From positions 2,144,001 through 2,208,000 of the forward strand of contig CAUVXB020000002.1 in assembly GCA_963555825.3 (NCBI GenBank): 64,000 nt of DNA. The letters run 5' to 3'. Below the pieces are notes generated by a model. The model was not told the DNA's origin. It searched no databases and saw only the letters and a program-made list of their open reading frames with translations. This stretch comes from Alphaproteobacteria bacterium. GTDB lineage: Bacteria > Pseudomonadota > Alphaproteobacteria > JAAXGF01. Below, in pieces: positions 1,340-36,580 of the stretch. The position numbers and the translations under genes were made by a program. Numbering within the stretch: the stretch's first letter is position 1; each line of letters begins with the position of its first letter.

Positions 1340-1761
1340 ATGGTGACGTATTTCGACACCCGACGTATCGCGCTCGCCGCGCTTCTCGCGGTCGCGTCCG
1401 CTTGGCCGGCGATGGCCGACTTCCGCGCCGGGGTCGATGCCTACGACAGGGGCGACTACATGGCCGCCTACGAGGAATGGCTGCCGCTCGCCGGACAGGG
1501 TGATGCGCGCGCACAGACCAACCTGGGCCACTTGTATCGCATGGGGCGCGGCGTCGCGCAGAACTACACGACCGCGCTGGAGTGGTATCGCAAGGCGGCC
1601 AACCAGAACAACGCGCGCGCCCAGGCCAACCTCGCCAACATGTACCTCAAGGGGCTCGGCATCACCGCCGACCCGGCGGCTGGCATCGCGCTGTTCCGGC
1701 TCGCCGCCGAGCAGGATTTCGCGGTCGCCCAGCTGCATCTCGGCCATATCTATCGGCTCGG
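1340..1761 (+). pseudogene. Secreted Sel1-repeat protein truncated by IS21
   Basis: Signal peptide followed by Sel1 repeats (AQTNLGHLYRMGRGV, AQANLANMYLKGLG). Interrupted at 1762 by the IS21 end TGTCAATGGCGG. Confidence 0.85.
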
Positions 1762-1952
1762 TGTCAATGGCGGAGCAAAAAGGGACCACCTCGGCGGTGT
1801 AAGAAGGGACCGCTTGGCGGCTGCGGGCTTGTCCCCGTAGTCCACGGGAGGGCCCCGCGCGCGACGCGGCGTGCCCTCAACAGGCTGACGCGGCGGCGCG
1901 CGCGGGAGGGACCTGTGGGCCCACGGGGTCAAGCGTGGGCTGGGTGGTCGGT

Positions 1953-2717
1953 TCAGTTAGCAGTCGGGGTTTGACGCCTGCGGCTCTGGTTGAGCCTGTA
2001 GCTGTCACCGTTCATCTCGAGGATGTTGACGTGGTGGGTGAGGCGATCGAGGAGCGCGCCGGTGAGGCGCTCGGAGCCGAACACCTCGGTCCATTCGTCG
2101 AAGGGCAGATTGGTGGTGACCAGGGTCGAGCCCCGCTCGTAGCGTTGGCTGAACACCTCGAACAACAGCTCGGCGCCGGTCTTCGACAGCGGCACGAAGC
2201 CGAGTTCGTCGACGATCAGAAGCTTGTAGGTGGCGAGCTTCTTCTGGAACCTCAGCAGCTGCTTGTCATCGCGGGCCTCGATGAGTTCGTGGACCAGCGC
2301 GGCGGCGGTGATGAAGCCGACCGAGAGGCCCTTCTGGCAGGCCGCCAGGCCGAGACCGAGGGCGATGTGGGTCTTGCCGGTCCCACTGTTGCCGAGCGCG
2401 ATGAGGTTCTCGCGGCGCTCGATGTACTCGCAGCGGGCCAGCTCCAGGACCAGCGCCTTGTTGAGCGAGGGGATGACCTTGAAGTCGAAGCTGTCGAGGC
2501 TCTTGACCACGGGGAAGCGCGCCGCCTTGATGCGCCGCTCGACCATGCGGCGCTCGCGGTCGATCAGCTCGAGCTCGGCGAGTCTCAACAGGTAGCGGAC
2601 GTGATCGACGCCTTCCGAGGCGCACTGCCGGGCGATCTTGTCGTACTCGCGCAGGAAGGTCGGCAGCTTCAGCGTCTTGAGGTGGTGGGCGAGCAGCACT
2701 TGCGGTGTGTCGGTCAT
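1953..2717 (-). CDS. istB: IS21 helper ATPase
   Basis: Walker A GNSGTGKT, Walker B LLIVDELG, ALLDRLTHH. Confidence 0.95.
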   Translation of the reverse strand: MTDTPQVLLAHHLKTLKLPTFLREYDKIARQCASEGVDHVRYLLRLAELELIDRERRMVERRIKAARFPVVKSLDSFDFKVIPSLNKALVLELARCEYIERRENLIALGNSGTGKTHIALGLGLAACQKGLSVGFITAAALVHELIEARDDKQLLRFQKKLATYKLLIVDELGFVPLSKTGAELLFEVFSQRYERGSTLVTTNLPFDEWTEVFGSERLTGALLDRLTHHVNILEMNGDSYRLNQSRRRQTPTAN

Positions 2718-3399
2718 GCGCCGAGCCCCGACAGCAGGCTCATGTACGACTTGGCGGACGTCATCGCGACCCGGGCGCGCGGCAGATACGGATAGACGTC
2801 GAGGTTGAGCCTGGGCGGCCGCCGCTCGATGCGGCACAGTACCAGGTGCTTCACCGCATCAAAGCCGATTGCGCCGAGCCGCAGGGCGTCGCCGACCGCA
2901 CCCTCGACCTCCTCGAGCCGGAAGGTCTCCAGTAGACGGAGCACCTGGACGTACTCGCGCTTGCCTGCCTTGCCCATACGAGCTTCGAGGAGCCGCCGCA
3001 GAGTGATGAAGGCCTCGGGCAGGTCCCAGCCCGCCAATGGCGCGGCCTGGTCGAGGGCGCCGATCTTCTGCTCGATCAAGGGCAGGTAATGCAGCGGGTC
3101 GAAGATCAGGTCCTCGCTGTCGTAGGACCGGCGGTGCCGGGCGATCACCTCGGCCCCGCAGCTGATCACCACCTCATCGACGTAGCCCCGGATGAGCACC
3201 TCACGGTGGCCGTAGGCCACGGGCACGGAATAGTCGTTGCTGCGGTAACGCACCAGCGACAGCGAACTCGCCCGTCCAGGGCGCTTATCGCAGGCATCAT
3301 AGGGAGCAGGCGGCAATGGCAAGAGAACTTGACGATCCCGCTCGAGACGCTCGCCGATGGTCTCCTTATATGAGGCGTTTGCTGTCAAGGTGGATTTAA

Positions 3400-3682
3400 T
3401 CTACGCCACATGATCGTCTCTTCCATTGGTTATGGCTTTGTATCCAGGGCGGGTCTTGCGATGAGTTCCGTGTTTCGTGCGAGTGATCGCATCACCTTAT
3501 ATCCGGCAGCTCCGATCCGGCTTGCCACAATGCTGTATACATGGACCATCACAGGACGGGGATGGGACTAATCTTGTGGACGGCACCTTCGCCAAGGAGA
3601 CATGCAGTCACACATCCAACCTGCCAACAAGCGTTCCCATCGGGGAATGAAGCCCGTTAGAACGCTGAGCTGATCCGCAGTC
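3400..3682 (-). ncRNA. Predicted bridge/seek RNA of IS1111 element 1 (ends approximate)
   Basis: Target guides at 3593-3601 and 3573-3579 and donor guides at 3530-3534 and 3496-3502, each pair flanking a hairpin. Outer stem GATGGGA (3561-3567) / TCCCATC (3635-3641). Confidence 0.8.
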
Positions 3683-4816
3683 CTATTTGACGACAGCACC
3701 CACCGGGATCAGCCCGGTTTCCAGATACCGCCAAAGCGCGATCGCCAGTTTGCGGGCCAGGGCGACGATCATGACGCGCCTGATGCGCCCCTTCTGACCT
3801 TGGGTGCGGTCATGGAACCACTGGGTCAGAGCGCTATCGGGTTGATGGCGGACCCAAAGCCATGCGGCTTCGATCATGGCAACCCGTGCCAGCCGATTGC
3901 CCGCCTTGGAGATGCCTTGGCTGCGGCGCCCGTCGCCGCTGTCATAGGCACTGGGCGTGATCCCGATATAGCTTGCCACCTGTCGGCGATTGGCGAACTG
4001 GCGATAATAGACTTCCCGTGCGAGCGTCGTGGATAAGGCCGGGCCGAGGCCCTTTAAGCGCAGCAGCTGGTGACGCTTGCTTTCCGTGGCCACACACGGT
4101 GTCGGCGCTTGATCACGCTCACGCTCGACCTCGACGATCTGCGCTTGGACCTGGGCCAGTCTCGCGATCTCCCGCGCGATCTCGCGGCCGAGACGGTCCG
4201 GCAGGGGTCGGCCGTCTCCGGTGACCAGCGCCGCCGGTGTCAAGGTCTTGTAGCGCGCCTTGACATTGATGCCGCGAATGCCCTGACCGAATAGCAGACC
4301 CTTGATCCGGTTGATGTGGGCGGTTCGCTCGCGGACCAATCGGTCACGTTCCCGATGAGAGCGGCGAAGGTCCTCCTCCGCGACGCTCGGAATCACCACC
4401 ATGGAGCAGACATGACGCTCGCCGCGGCACCAGGCGATCAGCGTATGAAGAATATTCTCGACATCGATGCGGTCGGTCTTCACCCGCCGCGCCCGGCGGT
4501 TGACCCGCAAGCTGGCCGGCTCCATGACCAGACACTCGATGCCGCGCTGCTCGAGGAACCGCGCCAACCAGAAGCCGTCGTAGCCGGCCTCGTAGCACAG
4601 CGTTATCGTCGGCGTTCGACCCGTCACCTTGACCACCCGGTCCCGCGCCGCGTCCAGCTTGGCCATCAGTCCTTCAGCGTCGCCGCCCTTGATCGGATGC
4701 AAGCTCGGATTGCCCCGCCCCGGAGCCTGGATCGCCAAAAGCCAGCTGTTCTTGCTCAACTCCAGTGCCGCATAAATAGCGTGTTCATTGGAGGTCGATA
4801 CCGGAAACTGTGCCAT
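3683..4816 (-). CDS. IS110-family recombinase/transposase
   Basis: RuvC-like acidic motifs (ALELSK, CYEAG, KTDRID) and Tnp-domain YDSG / ISKAGN. Confidence 0.93.
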   Translation of the reverse strand: MAQFPVSTSNEHAIYAALELSKNSWLLAIQAPGRGNPSLHPIKGGDAEGLMAKLDAARDRVVKVTGRTPTITLCYEAGYDGFWLARFLEQRGIECLVMEPASLRVNRRARRVKTDRIDVENILHTLIAWCRGERHVCSMVVIPSVAEEDLRRSHRERDRLVRERTAHINRIKGLLFGQGIRGINVKARYKTLTPAALVTGDGRPLPDRLGREIAREIARLAQVQAQIVEVERERDQAPTPCVATESKRHQLLRLKGLGPALSTTLAREVYYRQFANRRQVASYIGITPSAYDSGDGRRSQGISKAGNRLARVAMIEAAWLWVRHQPDSALTQWFHDRTQGQKGRIRRVMIVALARKLAIALWRYLETGLIPVGAVVK

Positions 4817-5854
4817 CGTGTCGCTCCTTCTGATCGAGGTTGAAATAATCGAAGGAGCTTGAGGCTGCGTCCTTCAGCCTCATAGCATCTTGTGGCCCCG
4901 CAGCCGCGCCGCCTGGCGCCGGCGGCACTGTTCGGCGAGAGCATCGTTGAGGGCCGCGAAGCTCTCGGCACGCGGGACGGGGACCAGGAAGTTCCGCCGG
5001 ATGAAGCCGACCAGTCCCTCGACCTTGCCCTTGTCGTTGCCCTTGCCCGGCCGGCCGAACCTGTCCTCGAACAGATAGTGGGACTGAAGCTCCGTGAAGA
5101 CGCGCGTTCGCTGCCGCTTCCCATCGCCCAGGATCCGGGCAACCGCCAGCTTGGTGTTGTCGTATAGGATGGATCGGGGGACGCCGCCGAAGAAGGCAAA
5201 CGCCGCGTTGTGGCCATCGCAGAATGCTTCGGTCGTCTCCGCCGGATAGGCCGCAACAAAGCAACCATCACTGTGGGGAAGGTCGAAGGCAAGGAAGTGG
5301 ATCTTCCGTAACGCGCCGCCGATCACCGCCATCGCTTCGCCGAAGTCCGCCTGGGCGTGACCGGGGGAATGGGAGAGTGGCACGAACACCTCACGCGACC
5401 GAAGCCCCTGCTCACGAACGTAGTCCTTCACGATGGTGTAGCCGCCCGTGAAACCGTACTCGTCCCGGAGGCGGTCGAAGATGCGCTTCGCAGTGTGCCG
5501 TTGCTTGCGGTGGCTGGTCCGATCGTCTTCCAAGATCCGATCGATGATTCCCGTGAACGGACCCAGCTTTGGCCGCCTCGGCGGCGCGCTTCGGCGATAC
5601 CCTGGCGGCACCGAGAACGACAGCATCTTACGGACCGTCTTGCGGTCCACACCAAACACCCGCGAGGCCTCGCGGGTGCTCATCCCCTCGACATGACACG
5701 CCCGCCGAACCCGTGCGTACAACTCCACCCGATACATCCCCCCGCCTTCCAGTCAGAGCAACCCTGACAGAAGGCTATACGCGGTCCCATTTTGGTCCGC
5801 CGCAGCCGGATCGACCGGCCGCTTCAGTGGGGGATTATTGCTCTGCCGTTCTCA

Positions 5855-6310: not shown

Positions 6311-6487
6311 AACTCGACCACACGCTGATCGGGATGCTCAAGGCCCGAAATTCGCGATCGCGGCCGGCTATGAGAACGGCGGCGCAATAATCCCCCACTG
6401 AAGCGGCCGGTTGATCCGGCTGTGGCGGACCAAAATGGGACCGCGTATAGCCTTCTGTCAGGGTTGCTCTGACTGGAAGGCGGGGGG

Positions 6488-7990
6488 ATGTATCGGGTGG
6501 AGATGTACGCGCGGGTCCGGCGGCGGGCGTGTCGTGTCGAGGGAATGAGCACCCGCGAGGCCTCGCGGGTGTTCGGGCTGGACCGCAAGACGGTACGCAA
6601 GATGCTGTCGTTCTCGGTGCCGCCAGGGTATCGCCGAAGCGCGCCGCCGAGGCGGCCAAAGCTGGGTCCGTTCACGGGAATCATCGATCGGATCTTGGAA
6701 GACGATCGGACCAGCCACCGCAAGCAACGGCACACTGCGAAGCGCATCTTCGACCGCCTCCGGGACGAGTACGGTTTCACGGGCGGCTACACCATCGTGA
6801 AGGACTACGTTCGTGAGCAGGGGCTTCGGTCGCGTGAGGTGTTCGTGCCACTCTCCCATTCCCCCGGTCACGCCCAGGCGGACTTCGGCGAAGCGATGGC
6901 GGTGATCGGCGGCGCGTTACGGAAGATCCACTTCCTTGCCTTCGACCTTCCCCACAGTGATGGTTGCTTTGTTGCGGCCTATCCGGCGGAGACGACCGAA
7001 GCATTCTGCGATGGCCACAACGCGGCGTTTGCCTTCTTCGGCGGCGTCCCCCGATCCATCCTGTACGACAACACCAAGCTGGCGGTTGCCCGGATCCTGG
7101 GCGATGGGAAGCGGCAGCGAACGCGCGTCTTCACGGAGCTTCAGTCCCACTATCTGTTCGAGGACAGGTTCGGCCGGCCGGGCAAGGGCAACGACAAGGG
7201 CAAGGTCGAGGGACTGGTCGGCTTCATCCGGCGGAACTTCCTGGTCCCCGTCCCGCGTGCCGAGAGCTTCGCGGCCCTCAACGATGCTCTCGCCGAACAG
7301 TGCCGCCGGCGCCAGGCGGCGCGGCTGCGGGGCCACAAGGAGACCATCGGCGAGCGTCTCGAGCGGGATCGTCAAGTTCTCTTGCCATTGCCGCCTGCTC
7401 CCTATGATGCCTGCGATAAGCGCCCTGGACGGGCGAGTTCGCTGTCGCTGGTGCGTTACCGCAGCAACGACTATTCCGTGCCCGTGGCCTACGGCCACCG
7501 TGAGGTGCTCATCCGGGGCTACGTCGATGAGGTGGTGATCAGCTGCGGGGCCGAGGTGATCGCCCGGCACCGCCGGTCCTACGACAGCGAGGACCTGATC
7601 TTCGACCCGCTGCATTACCTGCCCTTGATCGAGCAGAAGATCGGCGCCCTCGACCAGGCCGCGCCATTGGCGGGCTGGGACCTGCCCGAGGCCTTCATCA
7701 CTCTGCGGCGGCTCCTCGAAGCTCGTATGGGCAAGGCAGGCAAGCGCGAGTACGTCCAGGTGCTCCGTCTACTGGAGACCTTCCGGCTCGAGGAGGTCGA
7801 GGGTGCGGTCGGCGACGCCCTGCGGCTCGGCGCAATCGGCTTTGATGCGGTGAAGCACCTGGTACTGTGCCGCATCGAGCGGCGGCCGCCCAGGCTCAAC
7901 CTCGACGTCTATCCGTATCTGCCGCGCGCCCGGGTCGCGATGACGTCCGCCAAGTCGTACATGAGCCTGCTGTCGGGGCTCGGCGCATGA
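6488..7990 (+). CDS. istA: IS21 DDE transposase
   Basis: N-terminal HTH, QADFG, LYDN, KGKVEGLV. Overlaps istB by ATGA. Confidence 0.95.
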   Translation: MYRVEMYARVRRRACRVEGMSTREASRVFGLDRKTVRKMLSFSVPPGYRRSAPPRRPKLGPFTGIIDRILEDDRTSHRKQRHTAKRIFDRLRDEYGFTGGYTIVKDYVREQGLRSREVFVPLSHSPGHAQADFGEAMAVIGGALRKIHFLAFDLPHSDGCFVAAYPAETTEAFCDGHNAAFAFFGGVPRSILYDNTKLAVARILGDGKRQRTRVFTELQSHYLFEDRFGRPGKGNDKGKVEGLVGFIRRNFLVPVPRAESFAALNDALAEQCRRRQAARLRGHKETIGERLERDRQVLLPLPPAPYDACDKRPGRASSLSLVRYRSNDYSVPVAYGHREVLIRGYVDEVVISCGAEVIARHRRSYDSEDLIFDPLHYLPLIEQKIGALDQAAPLAGWDLPEAFITLRRLLEARMGKAGKREYVQVLRLLETFRLEEVEGAVGDALRLGAIGFDAVKHLVLCRIERRPPRLNLDVYPYLPRARVAMTSAKSYMSLLSGLGA

Positions 7991-8751
7991 CCGACACACC
8001 GCAAGTGCTGCTCGCCCACCACCTCAAGACGCTGAAGCTGCCGACCTTCCTGCGCGAGTACGACAAGATCGCCCGGCAGTGCGCCTCGGAAGGCGTCGAT
8101 CACGTCCGCTACCTGTTGAGACTCGCCGAGCTCGAGCTGATCGACCGCGAGCGCCGCATGGTCGAGCGGCGCATCAAGGCGGCGCGCTTCCCCGTGGTCA
8201 AGAGCCTCGACAGCTTCGACTTCAAGGTCATCCCCTCGCTCAACAAGGCGCTGGTCCTGGAGCTGGCCCGCTGCGAGTACATCGAGCGCCGCGAGAACCT
8301 CATCGCGCTCGGCAACAGTGGGACCGGCAAGACCCACATCGCCCTCGGTCTCGGCCTGGCGGCCTGCCAGAAGGGCCTCTCGGTCGGCTTCATCACCGCC
8401 GCCGCGCTGGTCCACGAACTCATCGAGGCCCGCGATGACAAGCAGCTGCTGAGGTTCCAGAAGAAGCTCGCCACCTACAAGCTTCTGATCGTCGACGAAC
8501 TCGGCTTCGTGCCGCTGTCGAAGACCGGCGCCGAGCTGTTGTTCGAGGTGTTCAGCCAACGCTACGAGCGGGGCTCGACCCTGGTCACCACCAATCTGCC
8601 CTTCGACGAATGGACCGAGGTGTTCGGCTCCGAGCGCCTCACCGGCGCGCTCCTCGATCGCCTCACCCACCACGTCAACATCCTCGAGATGAACGGTGAC
8701 AGCTACAGGCTCAACCAGAGCCGCAGGCGTCAAACCCCGACTGCTAACTGA
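7987..8751 (+). CDS. istB: IS21 helper ATPase
   Basis: Same protein as the other copies, with Walker A and B motifs. Confidence 0.95.
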   Translation: MTDTPQVLLAHHLKTLKLPTFLREYDKIARQCASEGVDHVRYLLRLAELELIDRERRMVERRIKAARFPVVKSLDSFDFKVIPSLNKALVLELARCEYIERRENLIALGNSGTGKTHIALGLGLAACQKGLSVGFITAAALVHELIEARDDKQLLRFQKKLATYKLLIVDELGFVPLSKTGAELLFEVFSQRYERGSTLVTTNLPFDEWTEVFGSERLTGALLDRLTHHVNILEMNGDSYRLNQSRRRQTPTAN

Positions 8752-9405
8752 ACCGACCACCCAGCCCACGCTTGACCCCGTGGGCCCACAGGTCCCTCCC
8801 GCGCGCGCCGCCGCGTCAGCCTGTTGAGGGCACGCCGCGTCGCGCGCGGGGCCCTCCCGTGGACTACGGGGACAAGCCCGCAGCCGCCAAGCGGTCCCTT
8901 CTTACACCGCCGAGGTGGTCCCTTTTTGCTCCGCCATTGACACGGGCTACGAGGATGCCGACGATTCGATGCCCTGCGCCATGACCCGGTATTCAAGATG
9001 GCGGTGGCGCGCGCACCGGAGATGGGCGCGGCGCTGTCCTCGCAGCGGACCATGTCGCAGCTCGTGAACGTGCCGTTGAAGCTCTTAAACGCGCCGTCGA
9101 AGATCGCTATCGCACGCATGGTGGCGGCTGTGGTCGAGCTGTTCTGCGTGAGCTGGGATCACCCGCCGGCCGCGATTACGCCGGATGTCGACAATACCCT
9201 CGATTCGGTGCACGGTCATCAGCAACTGGCATTGTTCAACACCCACTACGACGAGCGCCGCTTCCTGCCGATCCACATCTACGAGGCGACCAGCGGCAAG
9301 CCGGTGGCGGTGATCCTGCGCCAAGGCCGCACCGCCGAGGCGCTTGACCCAGCAACGCGTCAACACCACAGCCCCATCGGCGCGACCAACTCATGAACAG
9401 ATCGT

Positions 9406-15070: not shown

Positions 15071-15835
15071 TCAGTTAGCAGTCGGGGTTTGACGCCTGCG
15101 GCTCTGGTTGAGCCTGTAGCTGTCACCGTTCATCTCGAGGATGTTGACGTGGTGGGTGAGGCGATCGAGGAGCGCGCCGGTGAGGCGCTCGGAGCCGAAC
15201 ACCTCGGTCCATTCGTCGAAGGGCAGATTGGTGGTGACCAGGGTCGAGCCCCGCTCGTAGCGTTGGCTGAACACCTCGAACAACAGCTCGGCGCCGGTCT
15301 TCGACAGCGGCACGAAGCCGAGTTCGTCGACGATCAGAAGCTTGTAGGTGGCGAGCTTCTTCTGGAACCTCAGCAGCTGCTTGTCATCGCGGGCCTCGAT
15401 GAGTTCGTGGACCAGCGCGGCGGCGGTGATGAAGCCGACCGAGAGGCCCTTCTGGCAGGCCGCCAGGCCGAGACCGAGGGCGATGTGGGTCTTGCCGGTC
15501 CCACTGTTGCCGAGCGCGATGAGGTTCTCGCGGCGCTCGATGTACTCGCAGCGGGCCAGCTCCAGGACCAGCGCCTTGTTGAGCGAGGGGATGACCTTGA
15601 AGTCGAAGCTGTCGAGGCTCTTGACCACGGGGAAGCGCGCCGCCTTGATGCGCCGCTCGACCATGCGGCGCTCGCGGTCGATCAGCTCGAGCTCGGCGAG
15701 TCTCAACAGGTAGCGGACGTGATCGACGCCTTCCGAGGCGCACTGCCGGGCGATCTTGTCGTACTCGCGCAGGAAGGTCGGCAGCTTCAGCGTCTTGAGG
15801 TGGTGGGCGAGCAGCACTTGCGGTGTGTCGGTCAT
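15071..15835 (-). CDS. istB: IS21 helper ATPase
   Basis: Same protein as copies 1 and 2. Confidence 0.95.
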   Translation of the reverse strand: MTDTPQVLLAHHLKTLKLPTFLREYDKIARQCASEGVDHVRYLLRLAELELIDRERRMVERRIKAARFPVVKSLDSFDFKVIPSLNKALVLELARCEYIERRENLIALGNSGTGKTHIALGLGLAACQKGLSVGFITAAALVHELIEARDDKQLLRFQKKLATYKLLIVDELGFVPLSKTGAELLFEVFSQRYERGSTLVTTNLPFDEWTEVFGSERLTGALLDRLTHHVNILEMNGDSYRLNQSRRRQTPTAN

Positions 15836-17331
15836 GCGCCGAGCCCCGACAGCAGGCTCATGTACGACTTGGCGGACGTCATCGCGACCCGGGCGCGCGG
15901 CAGATACGGATAGACGTCGAGGTTGAGCCTGGGCGGCCGCCGCTCGATGCGGCACAGTACCAGGTGCTTCACCGCATCAAAGCCGATTGCGCCGAGCCGC
16001 AGGGCGTCGCCGACCGCACCCTCGACCTCCTCGAGCCGGAAGGTCTCCAGTAGACGGAGCACCTGGACGTACTCGCGCTTGCCTGCCTTGCCCATACGAG
16101 CTTCGAGGAGCCGCCGCAGAGTGATGAAGGCCTCGGGCAGGTCCCAGCCCGCCAATGGCGCGGCCTGGTCGAGGGCGCCGATCTTCTGCTCGATCAAGGG
16201 CAGGTAATGCAGCGGGTCGAAGATCAGGTCCTCGCTGTCGTAGGACCGGCGGTGCCGGGCGATCACCTCGGCCCCGCAGCTGATCACCACCTCATCGACG
16301 TAGCCCCGGATGAGCACCTCACGGTGGCCGTAGGCCACGGGCACGGAATAGTCGTTGCTGCGGTAACGCACCAGCGACAGCGAACTCGCCCGTCCAGGGC
16401 GCTTATCGCAGGCATCATAGGGAGCAGGCGGCAATGGCAAGAGAACTTGACGATCCCGCTCGAGACGCTCGCCGATGGTCTCCTTGTGGCCCCGCAGCCG
16501 CGCCGCCTGGCGCCGGCGGCACTGTTCGGCGAGAGCATCGTTGAGGGCCGCGAAGCTCTCGGCACGCGGGACGGGGACCAGGAAGTTCCGCCGGATGAAG
16601 CCGACCAGTCCCTCGACCTTGCCCTTGTCGTTGCCCTTGCCCGGCCGGCCGAACCTGTCCTCGAACAGATAGTGGGACTGAAGCTCCGTGAAGACGCGCG
16701 TTCGCTGCCGCTTCCCATCGCCCAGGATCCGGGCAACCGCCAGCTTGGTGTTGTCGTACAGGATGGATCGGGGGACGCCGCCGAAGAAGGCAAACGCCGC
16801 GTTGTGGCCATCGCAGAATGCTTCGGTCGTCTCCGCCGGATAGGCCGCAACAAAGCAACCATCACTGTGGGGAAGGTCGAAGGCAAGGAAGTGGATCTTC
16901 CGTAACGCGCCGCCGATCACCGCCATCGCTTCGCCGAAGTCCGCCTGGGCGTGACCGGGGGAATGGGAGAGTGGCACGAACACCTCACGCGACCGAAGCC
17001 CCTGCTCACGAACGTAGTCCTTCACGATGGTGTAGCCGCCCGTGAAACCGTACTCGTCCCGGAGGCGGTCGAAGATGCGCTTCGCAGTGTGCCGTTGCTT
17101 GCGGTGGCTGGTCCGATCGTCTTCCAAGATCCGATCGATGATTCCCGTGAACGGACCCAGCTTTGGCCGCCTCGGCGGCGCGCTTCGGCGATACCCTGGC
17201 GGCACCGAGAACGACAGCATCTTACGGACCGTCTTGCGGTCTACACCAAACACCCGCGAGGCCTCGCGGGTGCTCATCCCCTCGACATGACACGCCCGCC
17301 GAACCCGTGCGTACAACTCCACCCGATACAT
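15832..17331 (-). CDS. istA: IS21 DDE transposase
   Basis: Full-length, near-identical to 6488-7990. Confidence 0.95.
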   Translation of the reverse strand: MYRVELYARVRRACHVEGMSTREASRVFGVDRKTVRKMLSFSVPPGYRRSAPPRRPKLGPFTGIIDRILEDDRTSHRKQRHTAKRIFDRLRDEYGFTGGYTIVKDYVREQGLRSREVFVPLSHSPGHAQADFGEAMAVIGGALRKIHFLAFDLPHSDGCFVAAYPAETTEAFCDGHNAAFAFFGGVPRSILYDNTKLAVARILGDGKRQRTRVFTELQSHYLFEDRFGRPGKGNDKGKVEGLVGFIRRNFLVPVPRAESFAALNDALAEQCRRRQAARLRGHKETIGERLERDRQVLLPLPPAPYDACDKRPGRASSLSLVRYRSNDYSVPVAYGHREVLIRGYVDEVVISCGAEVIARHRRSYDSEDLIFDPLHYLPLIEQKIGALDQAAPLAGWDLPEAFITLRRLLEARMGKAGKREYVQVLRLLETFRLEEVEGAVGDALRLGAIGFDAVKHLVLCRIERRPPRLNLDVYPYLPRARVAMTSAKSYMSLLSGLGA

Positions 17332-17954
17332 CCCCCCCGCCTTCCAGTCAGAGCAACCCTGACAGAAGGCTATACGCGGTCCCATTTTGGTCCGCCGCAG
17401 CCGGATCGACCGGCCGCTTCAGTGGGGGATTATTGCTCTGCCGTTCTCACCGCTCCAATCGTCAGTAACGATCAGCGATCCCGGCGCGACGGTGCTCTCG
17501 ACGAACCCACAGAGCGACTCGGCGCTACGGTCGAGCACGACGGCGAGCCGAACGCGTCCGGCATAGCGTCCGTCTTTCCGGTTGTCGAGCTTGGTGCCCG
17601 GCTTTCGATGACGCACCTCGATGGCACAGGAGACGAGAACCTTGTGGTGAACACCACGGCCTTCCCCACGCGTTCGCCCGCCAACCCAGGTTTCGTCCAC
17701 CTCAACATGGTTCTTGGGCTGTCCACCGATCCTGTCTTGGTTGGGCCGCACCATGCCCGAGCGGAGCTTGTGGAGAATTTGAAAGGCCGTCTCGTAGCGC
17801 GAAAGACCAAGTTGCCGCTGAAACTGCACGGCGGACATGCCGGGCGTCTGACTGGCGACCAGATAAGCGGCCCAGAACCAGACGTTCAGCGGAGTGTGGC
17901 TACGCTCCATCACTGTTCCCACCGTCAGCCCGGTGTTCTGGCGGCACTTGCGGC

Positions 17955-32709: not shown

Positions 32710-32770
32710 GTCCGCTAACCGCTCGAAACCGGACCTCCAAGCCGCTATTGCTCAATGTCTGGTTCTGACC
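32710..32770. repeat. REP-like double hairpin, left (second hairpin completed at 34461-34472 after IS1182)
   Basis: GTCCG-N15-CGGAC (32710-32734), about 19-nt spacer, then TGTCTG-gttctGACCcttaa-CAGACA when reconstructed. Confidence 0.75.
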
Positions 32771-34456
32771 CAGCCTGTGTAAAAACGTCGATGGTGTTAT
32801 GATTCTCTCGTGCTTTGGCGGGAGGGTCTGATGAAGCGTTTTGTCGAGGGTGTCGATCGCAGCCAGGGCACGTTGTTTCCGGAGCGCCTGGAAGACTGGA
32901 TCGGCGACGACAACCCGGTTCGGGCGATCGACGTCTTCGTCGATGAGCTCGATCTTGGCGGCCTCGGGTTCGACCGGGTCGAGCCGCTGGCGACCGGCAG
33001 GCCGGCCTATCATCCTTGCGATTTGTTGAAGCTCTACATCTACGGCTATCTCAACCGGGTTCAGTCGAGCCGTCGGCTCGAGAGGGAGGCCGGGCGCAAT
33101 GTGGAAGTGATGTGGCTGGTCGGCCGGCTGGCGCCGGATCACAAGACGATCGCCGACTTCGGCCAAGGACAATGGTTCTGCGATCCGCCAGGTCTGTGCC
33201 CAGTTCATCGCCCTGTGCCGCCAACTGGGGCTGTTTGCCGAGGCGAGCGTGGCGATCGATGGCGCCAAGTTCAAGGCGGTCAACAGCCGGGACAGGAACT
33301 TCACGCGGGCCAAGATGGCGCGGCGGGTGGCGCAGATCGAGGAGAGCGTTGCGCGCTATCTGCAGCAACTCGACAGCGCCGACCGGCAAGAGCCGTCGCT
33401 GGCGCGCACGACCAAGACGACTCGTCTGGCCGACAAGATTGCGATCCTCAAGCAGGAGATGCGGCGCCTGAAGGCGCTTGAAGTCGAGCGGCGTGCGAGC
33501 CCGGACCAGCAGATCTCTCTGAGCGATCCCGATGCCCGCTCGATGGCGACGAGCGGCCGGGGTTCCGGCGTGGTGGGCTACAACGTTCAGGCCGCCGTCG
33601 ACACCAAGCATCACCTGATCGTTGCCCACGAGGTGACCAATCAGGGCACTGACCGCGCCCAGCTCTCAGCCATGGCGAAGCGGACCAAGGCGGCTCTGGA
33701 GACCGACGAGTTGGATGTCGTTGCCGATCGCGGCTACTACAACGGCAAGGAGATTCTGGCCTGCGATCAGGCCGGCATCACCGTCACGTTGCCTAAGCCG
33801 CTGACCTCTGGAGCCAAGGCCAAGGGCCGCTTCGGCAAACAGGACTTCGTCTATCTGGCCGCCGACGATGTCTATCGCTGCCCGGCCGGCGAGCGTTTGG
33901 TCTACCGCTTCACCAGCCAGGAGAGGGGGCTGAGCATGCGGCGCTACTGGACCAACGCCTGTCAGGGATGCGCCATCAAGCATCGCTGCACCACGGCCAA
34001 GCAGCGCCGCATCACCCGTTGGCAGCACGAACACATTCTCGAGGCCGTCGAGAGGCGGCTCGACGAGCACCCGGAGGCGATGCGTCGGCGGCGCGAGACG
34101 GCCGAGCATCCCTTCGGCACCCTCAAGGCCTGGATGGGCGCGACGCACTTCCAGATGAAGACGCTGAAGCGGGTGAGGACCGAGATGGCCTTGCACGTGC
34201 TGGCCTACAATCTCAAGCGCGTCATGAACATCATGGGCATCGACCCGCTGATCGCGGCGATCAGGACGGCATAGGCGCCCCTGCGCCGACAATTACGCCC
34301 ATACCCGGCCACATCGCGGCTCACAACGGCGCCAGCCGGCCGAAAAGCCCGCACGAGCGGCGAAAATCCATAATCCCGGAAAACACGTCCCGACTGATCA
34401 TCCAAACCCAAAGACGCGCCACACAGAAATAGCAGCAAACGTTCTCACACAGGCTG
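32771..34456 (+). mobile_element. IS1182-family element
   Basis: TIRs CAGCCTGTGTAAAAACGT / ACGTTCTCACACAGGCTG with a 4-bp duplication GACC. Confidence 0.92.
32831..34274 (+). pseudogene. IS1182 transposase, frameshifted near 33160
   Basis: GRPAYHP..LLKLYIYGY..PDHKTIADF, then in another frame AIDGAKFKA, ADRGY, EHPFGTLK. Confidence 0.88.
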
Positions 34457-34618
34457 GACCCTTAACAGACACGTTGCGGTGTGTGGGATATGACAAAACT
34501 TGCGGACCATGTGGCGTGGCCAACCCGTCCTCGGCCACGCGTAGCCCGGTTTGGGTGGAACGGTACGATCAAGCCTGCGCGAGACGTGGAGCATTCCGCT
34601 GCAAACTCGAAGCATTAG

Positions 34619-34771: not shown

Positions 34772-34989
34772 TGATCTTCCCCCATTTGACCAAGATGTTC
34801 ACGATGAATTGCTGAGAAAGCCAACTCCATTGAACAATCATCCCACTGAGCGGGCCATGTATGCTAGCGATAGCATCTCAGTACACGTCTGAGAAAACGA
34901 AGAGCCCGTGACCCTACCCGAGTTGGGCAGGAATAATCCAGCTTCTCGCTCCCGCTCGAATGTCTTGTGTGGATGGCTCCCGCGTTGCA

Positions 34990-35228
34990 AGGACTTTTTT
35001 CGGCGTAGCGACCTAGTCAGGTACAGTCTTGTGTCCGGCCTGTTGATGCGGTTTTGTTGAACCGCTGGCCCTGATGGTATCCGTGGATCGGGTCCCTATC
35101 TGCTTAGCGGGCTCGAACACCCAGGACATTGGTCGGGTTGTCCCGATCCCCGGTCTGACCGGTTCGCCATCACGTCTCGTCGTCCTTGCAATCGTCGAAA
35201 GGCGTTGTGCCTTCGAGCGATCAATTGG
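34990..35228 (-). ncRNA. Predicted bridge/seek RNA of IS1111 element 2 (ends approximate)
   Basis: Target guides at 35125-35130 and 35100-35106 and donor guides at 35073-35077 and 35028-35034, each pair flanking a hairpin. Confidence 0.8.
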
Positions 35229-36263
35229 TCATGCGGTCTCCTCAGTTGCGGGTCGGTGAGCGCGGTAGGCCTCGCCACGGGTCATGATGACCCAGGCGAT
35301 CCGCGCGGCCTTGTTGGCCATGGCCACGGCGACCAGCTTGTTGGGCTTGCTTACCAGCAAGTTGGTGATCCAGGGGTGAACCTCGGGCTTGCGCCGTGCC
35401 GATTGAAGCTGTGATGTCATGCCGATCACCAGCAGACGGCGAAGATAGCGGTCCGCCATCTTGGAGATGCGTCCCATGCGATCCTTGCCGGCGCTGGAAT
35501 CGGCCTTGGGCGTTAGCCCGAGCGAGGCGGCAAACTGGCGAGCCGATGTGAACCGGTGCGGATCGGTGACCGAGGCCGCCAGCGCCGAGGCGGTGATGTA
35601 ACCAATCCCCGGAATGGTCGCGAGCCGTTTGGCCAGGTCGTTGCCGCGGAACCAGGTCTTGATCTCGCCCTCGATCATGGCGACCCGGGCTTGCAACTCG
35701 CGGATCTGCTCGGCCAGGGCAATGACGATCTTGCATGCCAGCGGGGGAATGTCCGGCACCACTCCTTCGACAAGCTGATCGACGAGCCTCAGCGCGTGAT
35801 GAATGCCTTTGGCCAGCACGATGCCCAACTCGGCCAGCTGGGACCGGATCATGTTGACCAGCTGGGTGCGCTGGCCGACCGGCAGATCCCGTGTTCGGTG
35901 GAGCGCCAGGACCGATTGCTGCTCGGCCGACTCGATCGCGACGAACCGCATCGTGGGGCGCGTCACCGCCTCGCAGATCGCCTCCGCATCGGCGGCGTCG
36001 GTCTTGCCGCGCTTGACGTATGGTTTGACGTAGATCGGTGGCATCAATTTCACCTCGTGCCCCAATGCCTGGAGCTCGCGGGACCAGAAGTGGCTCGTGC
36101 CGCACGCCTCGATACCGATCAGACACGGTTCCAGCTTGCCGAAGAACGGCATCATCTGGCGCCGGCGCAACGATCGGCGGACGATGACCTTGCCGGTGCT
36201 GTCAATGCCGTGGACTTGGAAAACGTTCTTGGCCAGATCGAGGCCGACAGTGGTAACTTTCAT
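35229..36263 (-). CDS. IS110-family recombinase/transposase
   Basis: GLDLAK, GIEAC, KTDAAD (DEDD), SSAGK and ISKM. Confidence 0.93.
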   Translation of the reverse strand: MKVTTVGLDLAKNVFQVHGIDSTGKVIVRRSLRRRQMMPFFGKLEPCLIGIEACGTSHFWSRELQALGHEVKLMPPIYVKPYVKRGKTDAADAEAICEAVTRPTMRFVAIESAEQQSVLALHRTRDLPVGQRTQLVNMIRSQLAELGIVLAKGIHHALRLVDQLVEGVVPDIPPLACKIVIALAEQIRELQARVAMIEGEIKTWFRGNDLAKRLATIPGIGYITASALAASVTDPHRFTSARQFAASLGLTPKADSSAGKDRMGRISKMADRYLRRLLVIGMTSQLQSARRKPEVHPWITNLLVSKPNKLVAVAMANKAARIAWVIMTRGEAYRAHRPATEETA

Positions 36264-36358
36264 GGCGGATAGCTCCTCTTGCTCGTGGTTGATAACAACC
36301 ACCACTTTGGCATCTCGGTGCCGGGAGCGGGAGCCATCCACCCCATCTGCTTATGGCC

Positions 36359-36519
36359 GAGGCTGTTGAAAAAGTCCCGAAACATCCATTTTGAGCCTGA
36401 ATTGGCCAATTCTCCGAAATCGGTGTTTTCCTAAGTCTTTGATTTCATTGAACTCGAATTCTCATTGGTTCCGGGAAATTGGCGAGTTTGGTTCCGCTAC
36501 CGACTTTTTCAACAGCCTC
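36359..36519. mobile_element. 161-bp MITE with IS5/IS1182-like ends
   Basis: Perfect 18-bp TIR GAGGCTGTTGAAAAAGTC. Flanks GGCC / GGCT. Confidence 0.8.
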
Positions 36520-36580
36520 GGCTATAAGCTGACGTTACGACGGATTGATCAGCATGTCCGGTTCCTGCTCGTAAGCGGAC
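36520..36580. repeat. REP-like double hairpin, right
   Basis: Right arm ATAAGCTGACGTT of the reconstructed hairpin AATGTCTGCTTAT-ggct-ATAAGCTGACGTT, then GTCCG-N15-CGGAC (36556-36580). Confidence 0.75.

Follow-up and report, generated by a model that had tools for sequence, protein, structure and literature searches.

We found that element 1, an IS1111-type insertion sequence that interrupts istA in an IS21-family element, probably carries an RNA guide derived from one that sought REP-like palindromes, and that a look-alike of its target in the istA gene of the abundant IS21 absorbs most of its insertions. This reading draws on the structure of a loop in the element's 3′ noncoding DNA, the covariation of that loop with the flanking DNA, the flanks themselves, the pattern of occupied and unoccupied sites, and the nesting of element 1 among REP-seeking relatives. 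In the mechanism that we propose, a DEDD recombinase would pick its insertion site via an RNA from the 3′ noncoding region, with a left guide, AUGUCUC+CU, pairing with the bottom strand to the left of a CT core and a right guide, CCACA+AG, pairing with top-strand sequence on the right side of the core. REP seeking would be ancestral, relatives with AUGUCCG-CU inserting at ATGTCCG-CT-T inside 24-28-nt palindromes. The guide of element 1 would have changed at two core-adjacent bases (CG to UC) and in its right half; the changed guide would fit a minority form of the REP arms, with GTCTCC, and canonical REPs would present it with two core-adjacent mismatches. The three best sites, each with one mismatch, would fill, and the two-mismatch look-alike in istA, offered by ~80 IS21 copies, would take 11 of 16 insertions, each breaking the IS21 transposase. 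The istA gene would be struck through resemblance and not through selection.

The interrupted IS21 copy occupies 1761..5854 (minus strand; identified by Pfam, with its extent set by BLAST to an intact copy) of the window, by which we mean the whole 64,000-nt stretch of DNA that was analyzed. Its istA gene is split into fragments at 4880-5737 and 2714-3388, and its istB gene lies at 1953-2837 (Pfam IstB_IS21), all on the minus strand. Pfam matches on IS21 were rve, Mu-transpos_C_2, and IstB_IS21, and all three copies in the window have the arrangement by which the family is recognized, an istA with HTH, rve, and Mu-transposase C-terminal domain followed by the istB ATPase. The other two copies each retain an unoccupied element 1 target. 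One of these, TGGTCTC-CT-TGTGG, lies at 7333..7346 (minus strand) in the intact IS21 at 6371-8942, and the other lies at 16476..16489 (plus strand) in the third copy, whose istA is at 15832-17385 (minus strand).

Element 1 (3367..4888, minus strand) is bracketed by CTT repeats at 3365-3367 and 4889-4891, 1521 bp apart, and its boundaries were set from 11 copies with both ends and 69 unoccupied istA sites. We place the core at CT (3365-3366 and 4889-4890) rather than CTT because in two relatives, L063 and L065, an AAG junction is paired with one reading TAG / GAG. The 377-aa transposase (3683..4816, minus strand), present in 12 identical copies in the host genome, matched both DEDD_Tnp_IS110 (PF01548; 1.1e-9) and Transposase_20 (PF02371; 1.6e-16), the RuvC-like DEDD N-terminal domain and the C-terminal domain that together characterize IS110/IS1111. 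The layout is that of the IS1111 type, with 315 nt of noncoding DNA downstream of the gene (3368-3682) vs. 72 nt upstream and with subterminal inverted repeats (TATGAGGC / GCCTCATA), which at 8 nt are below the length typical of IS1111. We therefore assign the element to IS110/IS1111, IS1111 type, on the strength of its domains and layout.

Within the 3′ noncoding region, the stretch 3573-3604 reads tcttgtggacggcaccttcgccaaggagacat on the plus strand and ATGTCTCCTT-GGCGAAGGTGCC-GTCCACAAGA, i.e., AUGUCUCCUU-GGCGAAGGUGCC-GUCCACAAGA, on the minus strand. An alignment of 12 relatives (element 1 and 11 others) outlines a putative target-binding loop at 3560..3617 (minus strand), in which a closing helix of 10 bp (3606-3617 with 3560-3569) encloses the left guide (AUGUCUC+CU, 3595-3603, 9 nt), a hairpin of 4 bp (3582-3593), and the right guide (CCACA+AG, 3573-3579, 7 nt). 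The alignment has two hypervariable windows, framed by the conserved sequence that forms the closing helix and the hairpin. In these helices, 96.4% of cells were paired, with three compensatory pairs, vs. 33-52% in slid controls. When the guides of element 1, L061-L067, L070, and L071 were compared with their own flanks, the 10-nt left window matched at 8-10 of 10 positions and the 7-nt right window at 6-7 of 7. Guide and flank also changed together: ACGUCCG occurs with ACGTCCG (L067), ACGGUAG with ACGGCAG (L063), and AGGUCCG with AGGTCTG (L066), and at locus L046 of the related genome G001 the guide AAUGUCCGCUU accompanies the flank AATGTCCGCTT. Both sides of the loop match target strands, include the core, and covary with the flanks, and we read 3573-3604 as the loop by which a bridge/seek RNA of the IS1111 type, presumably expressed by element 1, binds its target. 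Contigs from three RNA-library runs (X1-X3) span element 1 including its noncoding region, and as contigs they carry no transcription, strand, or end information. A longer right guide, reaching to GUCCAC(GG), was considered and rejected; it fits site 2 (described below) only, and the relatives show ~7 nt.

A candidate donor-binding region was noted by eye at 3485..3550 (minus strand). It contains AGCAU, complementary to the 5′ end of the element (ATGCT), and AUAUAAG, identical to the 3′ end plus the core. Both the region and the element ends are conserved among relatives and hence show no covariation, and this visual reading suggests a donor-binding loop.

The closest public relatives point to the REP-seeking origin of the lineage. 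Among the nine relatives with a readable flank (76-89% amino acid identity), seven (L061, L062, L064, L066, L067, L070, and L071) lie in ATGTC...GAC palindromes or their arms and two lie elsewhere. All of the seven but L066 are located in ATGTCCGCTT-N8-AAG|CGGACAT, and the palindrome of the relatives takes the form ATGTCCG-CT-T...AAGCGGACAT. From the related genomes G001 and G005, we also recovered one-sided junctions at contig ends, six on the left (AATGTCCG-CTT|, five in G001 and one in G005) and four on the right (|CTTCGGGGGTAAAGCGGACGT, all in G001), which together make up a complete REP palindrome, and the G001 copies with a readable guide bear AAUGUCCGCUU. A maximum-likelihood tree placed element 1 inside a clade (support 98/92) of 10 rows, seven of them REP-flanked, with REP seekers as its successive sisters; L078 and the element 2 outgroup had very long branches, probably reflecting frame problems, and were left out of conclusions from the tree. 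No IstA was found next to the element at any of the 36 loci L061-L096 (56-89% identity). These relationships argue that the element 1 lineage is a REP seeker and that the UC in the guide of element 1 is derived. The original prediction, that element 1 is aimed at a REP family, had been staked on finding relatives in REP-like palindromes, and the seven loci and 10 one-sided junctions supply them. The accompanying expectation of mostly palindromic flanks held for the homologues but not for the element's own copies, most of which (11 of 16) are in istA.

In the host genome, 11 copies of element 1 have both ends. Seven of these are in istA, with the junction GATGGTCTC-CTT-GTGGCCCC, and four are elsewhere, with the flanks TCGATGTCTC-CTT-GTGATG, GCTCGTCTC-CTT-GTGGACG, CCAATGTCTC-CTT-GTGACCC, and GGTATGTCTC-CTT-ATGGCTG. 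With the remaining copies and remnants included, the total of 16 divides into 11 in istA (the seven full copies, C2:1500330, C2:1618223, and the remnants C1:1730237 and C1:1251402), three in REP arms, and two elsewhere. The REP-arm cases are C2:1503420, in the second arm of a REP doublet and adjoining another IS1111 element; C2:3498615, in an arm adjoining an IS1182-like element; and an orphan end at C2:1770126, flanked by CT-TGTAGCCAGGAGGAGACAT. Sites 1 and 3 are the full copies in REP arms, making up two of the four full copies outside istA. Site 2 is inside a serine-recombinase gene, a paralogue of which is unoccupied, and site 4 (C2:800125) is unique sequence. Site 4 has ATGTCTCCTTATGGC in common with the arm in the window, but we rejected the idea that it is a degenerate MITE arm or REP, as it has no palindrome partner and belongs to no repeat family. 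The diverged remnant at C1:1251402-1251699 was examined as a possible record of older guides but stops partway through the guide and so gives no information on them. Outside istA, three of the four sites read ATGTCTC-CT, consistent with the earlier proposal that the left guide extends to AUG. The AT at positions −7/−6 that these three share (chance of AT in at least three of four flanks, ~3e-4 at the genome AT dinucleotide frequency of 0.042) is lacking in istA, where the match begins short of the AUG end, as had also been proposed.

The match between guide and site parallels occupancy. We scored every CT in the genome by a model of seven left positions, the CT, and five right positions (maximum, 12), for which the preferred 14-mer of element 1 is ATGTCTC-CT-TGTGG. 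The genome contains no perfect (12/12) site, and genome-wide scoring found no unoccupied site at 12/12 or 11/12: sites 1, 3, and 4 score 11/12 and are all occupied. Site 2 and istA score 10/12, as do 97 unoccupied sites (69 intact istA, 12 copies of the element 1 guide DNA, and 16 others). Filled sites thus numbered 3 of 3 at 11/12 vs. 12 of 97 at 10/12 (P = 0.003, on small counts), the latter 97 comprising 80 istA and 17 other sites; within the 10/12 class, istA was filled at 11 of 80 sites vs. 1 of 17 for the others (P = 0.69, likewise on small counts). The bias toward istA can be attributed to the abundance of IS21, given a guide that tolerates one or two mismatches, and the look-alike reading fits the occupancy data. 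As a separate observation, the DNA of the element's own left guide (window 3590-3603, ATGTCTC-CT-TGGCG) is itself a 10/12 match, and none of the 12 such matches in the genome is occupied.

The palindromes in question recur through the host genome as short, imperfect repeats of the kind that define REPs. A search with GTC[CT]G[CG]T-N11-A[CG]C[AG]GAC returned 53 matches, 48 of which were exactly 25 nt, and a looser count gave 87 at the 25-nt spacing vs. 13-37 at 11 of 12 other spacings. Two intact 25-nt palindromes are in the window, one (GTCCGGTTCCTGCTCGTAAGCGGAC) at 36556..36580 and one at 32710..32734, beside an IS1182/IS5-like element (about 32767-34461). We call them REP-like because no Y1 transposase (RAYT) gene adjoins one; of three PF01797 matches in the genome, none had a REP-like palindrome within 1.5 kb by a loose regular expression. 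The palindromes are often split by the ~1.75-kb IS1182/IS5-like element (~30 copies) or by a MITE-like repeat of ~190 bp (11 genome copies; 36349..36535 in the window, with the outer 15 nt on each side being REP-type half arms), and half arms remain. These two repeats have related terminal repeats and carry palindrome arms as their outer flanks; among copies, the arms are variable and the insides are 92-98% alike. There is a second spacing peak, of 82 genome-wide matches to GTCYG-N9-CRGAC (19 nt), which may reflect a further family of palindromes or the rebuilding of palindromes around the ends of insertion sequences.

A second IS1111-type element in the window uses the same arm. Element 2 (about 34966-36346, minus strand; subterminal repeat GTGGATGGCTCCC / GGGAGCCATCCAC; transposase open reading frame 35229-36341, minus strand) has the flanks GAATGTCT | GCTTATGGCCGAGGCTG, the right side also being given as GCTTATGGCC, and its site is the REP-type arm GAATGT-CT-GCTTATGG. 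In its other copies, the left flank is AATGTC[C/T] and the right flank GCT.. or GTA... Element 2 cuts the arm at ATGT-CY-GCTT, and the element 1 lineage uses a CT lying 3 nt downstream, which bears out the offset between the two cores that had been predicted. By eye, and by comparison with the flanks, a loop of the same build as that of element 1 is apparent at 35085..35149 (minus strand), with a helix (GGAUCGGG / CCCGAUCC), a left guide CCAAUGU-CC-U (35123-32, minus strand; register assigned by analogy with element 1), and, across a hairpin, a right guide UAAGC-AG-A (within 35098-35108, minus strand). The REP arm ascribed to element 2 in the window is indeed of REP type, but it is a half-palindrome adjoining the MITE-like repeat and not an intact REP; one element 2 fragment (C1:941234) lies in an intact palindrome. 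The broader claim, that two guided elements share one repeat family, holds for element 2 and for the relatives of element 1 and must be qualified for element 1 itself, given how many of its copies are in istA.

The main competitor to the look-alike reading is that element 1 is a specialized IS21 parasite, its guide having been selected for istA as a harmless, multiplying harbor and its REP-arm copies being leftovers or off-targets. Several observations can be cited in its favor. Besides holding 11 of the 16 copies or remnants, istA is matched by the right guide at 7 of 7 positions; by hand count, the istA match rises from 7/12 with a relative's guide (ATGTCCG / TTTGG) to 10/12 with the guide of element 1, and each of the derived changes raises it. 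In C2:3336900-3337900, a decayed 5′ end of element 1 (73% over 644 nt) abuts istA at the position of the present insertions, suggesting that the association is not purely recent, and a separate clade of elements found in istA (described below) shows that such a lifestyle exists in the group. The claim of mimicry in the original prediction agrees with occupancy, yet sequence alone fits selection for IS21 as well, and the decayed junction and the istA clade speak for that alternative. We nevertheless regard specialization as rather unlikely. The distal AU of the left guide mismatches istA and matches three of the four other sites, the better-matching sites are all filled, and istA is filled no more often per site than its equals in score. 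The closest relatives seek REPs and have no IstA beside them, and the istA clade, which inserts at a different site, does not group as the sister of element 1.

A quite improbable alternative is that element 1 entered istA a few times, possibly once, and that the resulting IS21::element 1 composite later multiplied through IS21 transposase provided in trans, in which case the istA count would overstate targeting. IS21 has undergone a recent burst (54 full copies in the genome, with 59 of 81 other copies or pieces at 0-1 private differences from the consensus), and all the copies that bear element 1 are almost the same in sequence and retain intact IS21 ends. However, this route needs trans-mobilization of a copy without IstA, and element 1 has moved alone to at least four other sites. 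The IS21 copies are so alike that only a poly-G indel was informative for haplotyping them, and the element 1-bearing copies split 6:3 between its two states, which argues against a single founder insofar as a weak marker prone to recurrent change can do so. It is very improbable that the resemblance between loop and flank is due to chance and that the protein alone chooses the site. An Rfam scan of 3300-4960 (E ≤ 1) matched no family, and a minimum-energy fold of the whole noncoding region was no better than shuffles (z = 0.97), an uninformative result; set against these are the covariation of guide and flank, seen in 10 elements, and the helices, which are conserved and enclose two hypervariable windows. 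We therefore favor a REP-derived guide that strikes istA as a look-alike.

Both the mechanism and the kind of target have precedents. SeekRNAs (bridge RNAs) are placed in the 3′ noncoding region of ISEc11, ISPa11, and ISKpn4 (Siddiquee et al. 2024, PMC11187229), and that paper describes elements like element 1, with DEDD and PF02371 domains, a long downstream noncoding region, and subterminal inverted repeats. Read in element orientation, the guides also follow the order of IS1111 seekRNAs, the segment complementary to the top strand coming 5′ of the one complementary to the bottom strand, and the transposase of element 1, known from sequence alone, has 377 aa vs. 330-350 aa for IS1111 (PMC11187229). 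According to Durrant et al. 2024 (PMC11208160), IS621 resembles element 1 in having an internal loop with the CT core within both guides (left, 8-9 nt, bottom strand; right, 4-7 nt, top strand), but its RNA is upstream of the gene and its guide order is reversed. The natural target of IS621 is a REP and its off-targets typically have one or two mismatches (PMC11208160), whereas the majority natural target of element 1 is a two-mismatch site in another IS. Among IS110-family elements of Pseudomonas putida, ISPpu9 inserts into a REP and ISPpu10 into a conserved intergenic stem-loop sequence (PMC12288879; 10.64898/2026.03.19.712850); here, in contrast, at least two families cut one arm at different offsets and one of them has partly left the REP.

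Element 1 is also like IS1383, which reportedly targets the inverted repeats of IS1384, and IS4321/IS5075, which reportedly target those of the Tn21 family (titles cited in PMC11208160), in having its target in another mobile element. The targets of those elements are terminal repeats, whereas that of element 1 is inside istA, where insertion inactivates the host IS. The literature cited in PMC11208160 includes papers by Tobes and Pareja in 2006, Partridge and Hall in 2003, and Müller and colleagues in 2001. The novelty here lies in a guide that has drifted and for which another IS serves as the principal sink. Element 1 would exemplify guide drift in nature, a few core-adjacent changes having moved most insertions from a palindromic harbor to a two-mismatch look-alike, and about one-seventh of IS21 copies have been knocked out by it. 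The same data give a view of mismatch tolerance in a real genome, where one-mismatch sites are all filled and two-mismatch sites are ~12% filled, and of several guided IS families using one palindrome at differing offsets.

A related clade, apparently dedicated to the IS21 transposase gene, also emerged from the analysis of element 1. These elements share 47-48% amino acid identity with element 1 and lie in istA of diverse IS21 elements at 12 of 92 loci, in four MAG genomes (L097, L098, L099, L100, L102, L104, L108 [1397-2910], L115, L118, L119, L121, and L122). The insertion is always at the GNDK|GKVE codons (IstA residue ~237) and oriented as istA, the loop partially matches this site, and the junctions by themselves leave the exact base of the core ambiguous. 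Searching the literature by title and abstract, we found no IS110-family element aimed at istA; the targets tabulated by Siddiquee et al. might include some. It is possible, and we suggest it tentatively, that guided IS-on-IS parasitism arose at least twice in this subgroup, through a move of element 1 from REP to the istA of an expanding IS21 and in the clade dedicated to istA of diverse IS21 elements, at the codons of its catalytic GNDK-GKVE motif. If so, such elements would be natural, programmable brakes on IS21 bursts.

Several further features were noted. The IS21 copy in C2:3336900-3337900 bears an unoccupied element 1 target, and ~40 nt past it is a 46-nt patch of two pieces of element 1 noncoding DNA, equivalent to window 3528-3554 and 3576-3592, with the decayed 5′ end of element 1 lying farther on. 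Over window 3250-5010, contigs from RNA-library runs X1 and X3 contain an element 1 junction, CTTGTGGCC followed by GGAGCGGTCATTGG, that is absent from the genome. Run X2 (depth 3.1) has ..GATGCCCG-CTT, a REP-like arm, ahead of element 1, and this junction is likewise absent from the genome. Inspection of flanks indicated that at least three to four more IS1111-type families insert into the arm used by element 2 and the element 1 lineage, though at different offsets, with subterminal repeats GTGGACGGCCCCAC, GTGGACGGCTCCCA, and GTGGACGGCTCCAC and left flanks such as AATGTCTGCTCAT and AATGTCCGCTAG. We also observed tandem arrays, with periods of about 66, 94, and 134 bp, whose unit contains GTGGACGGCTCCC, which is the subterminal repeat of a different family of the IS1111 type; these arrays adjoin full copies of that family at C2:1402808-1403006, C2:2097956-2099650, C1:169601-170057, and C1:2233734-2234484.
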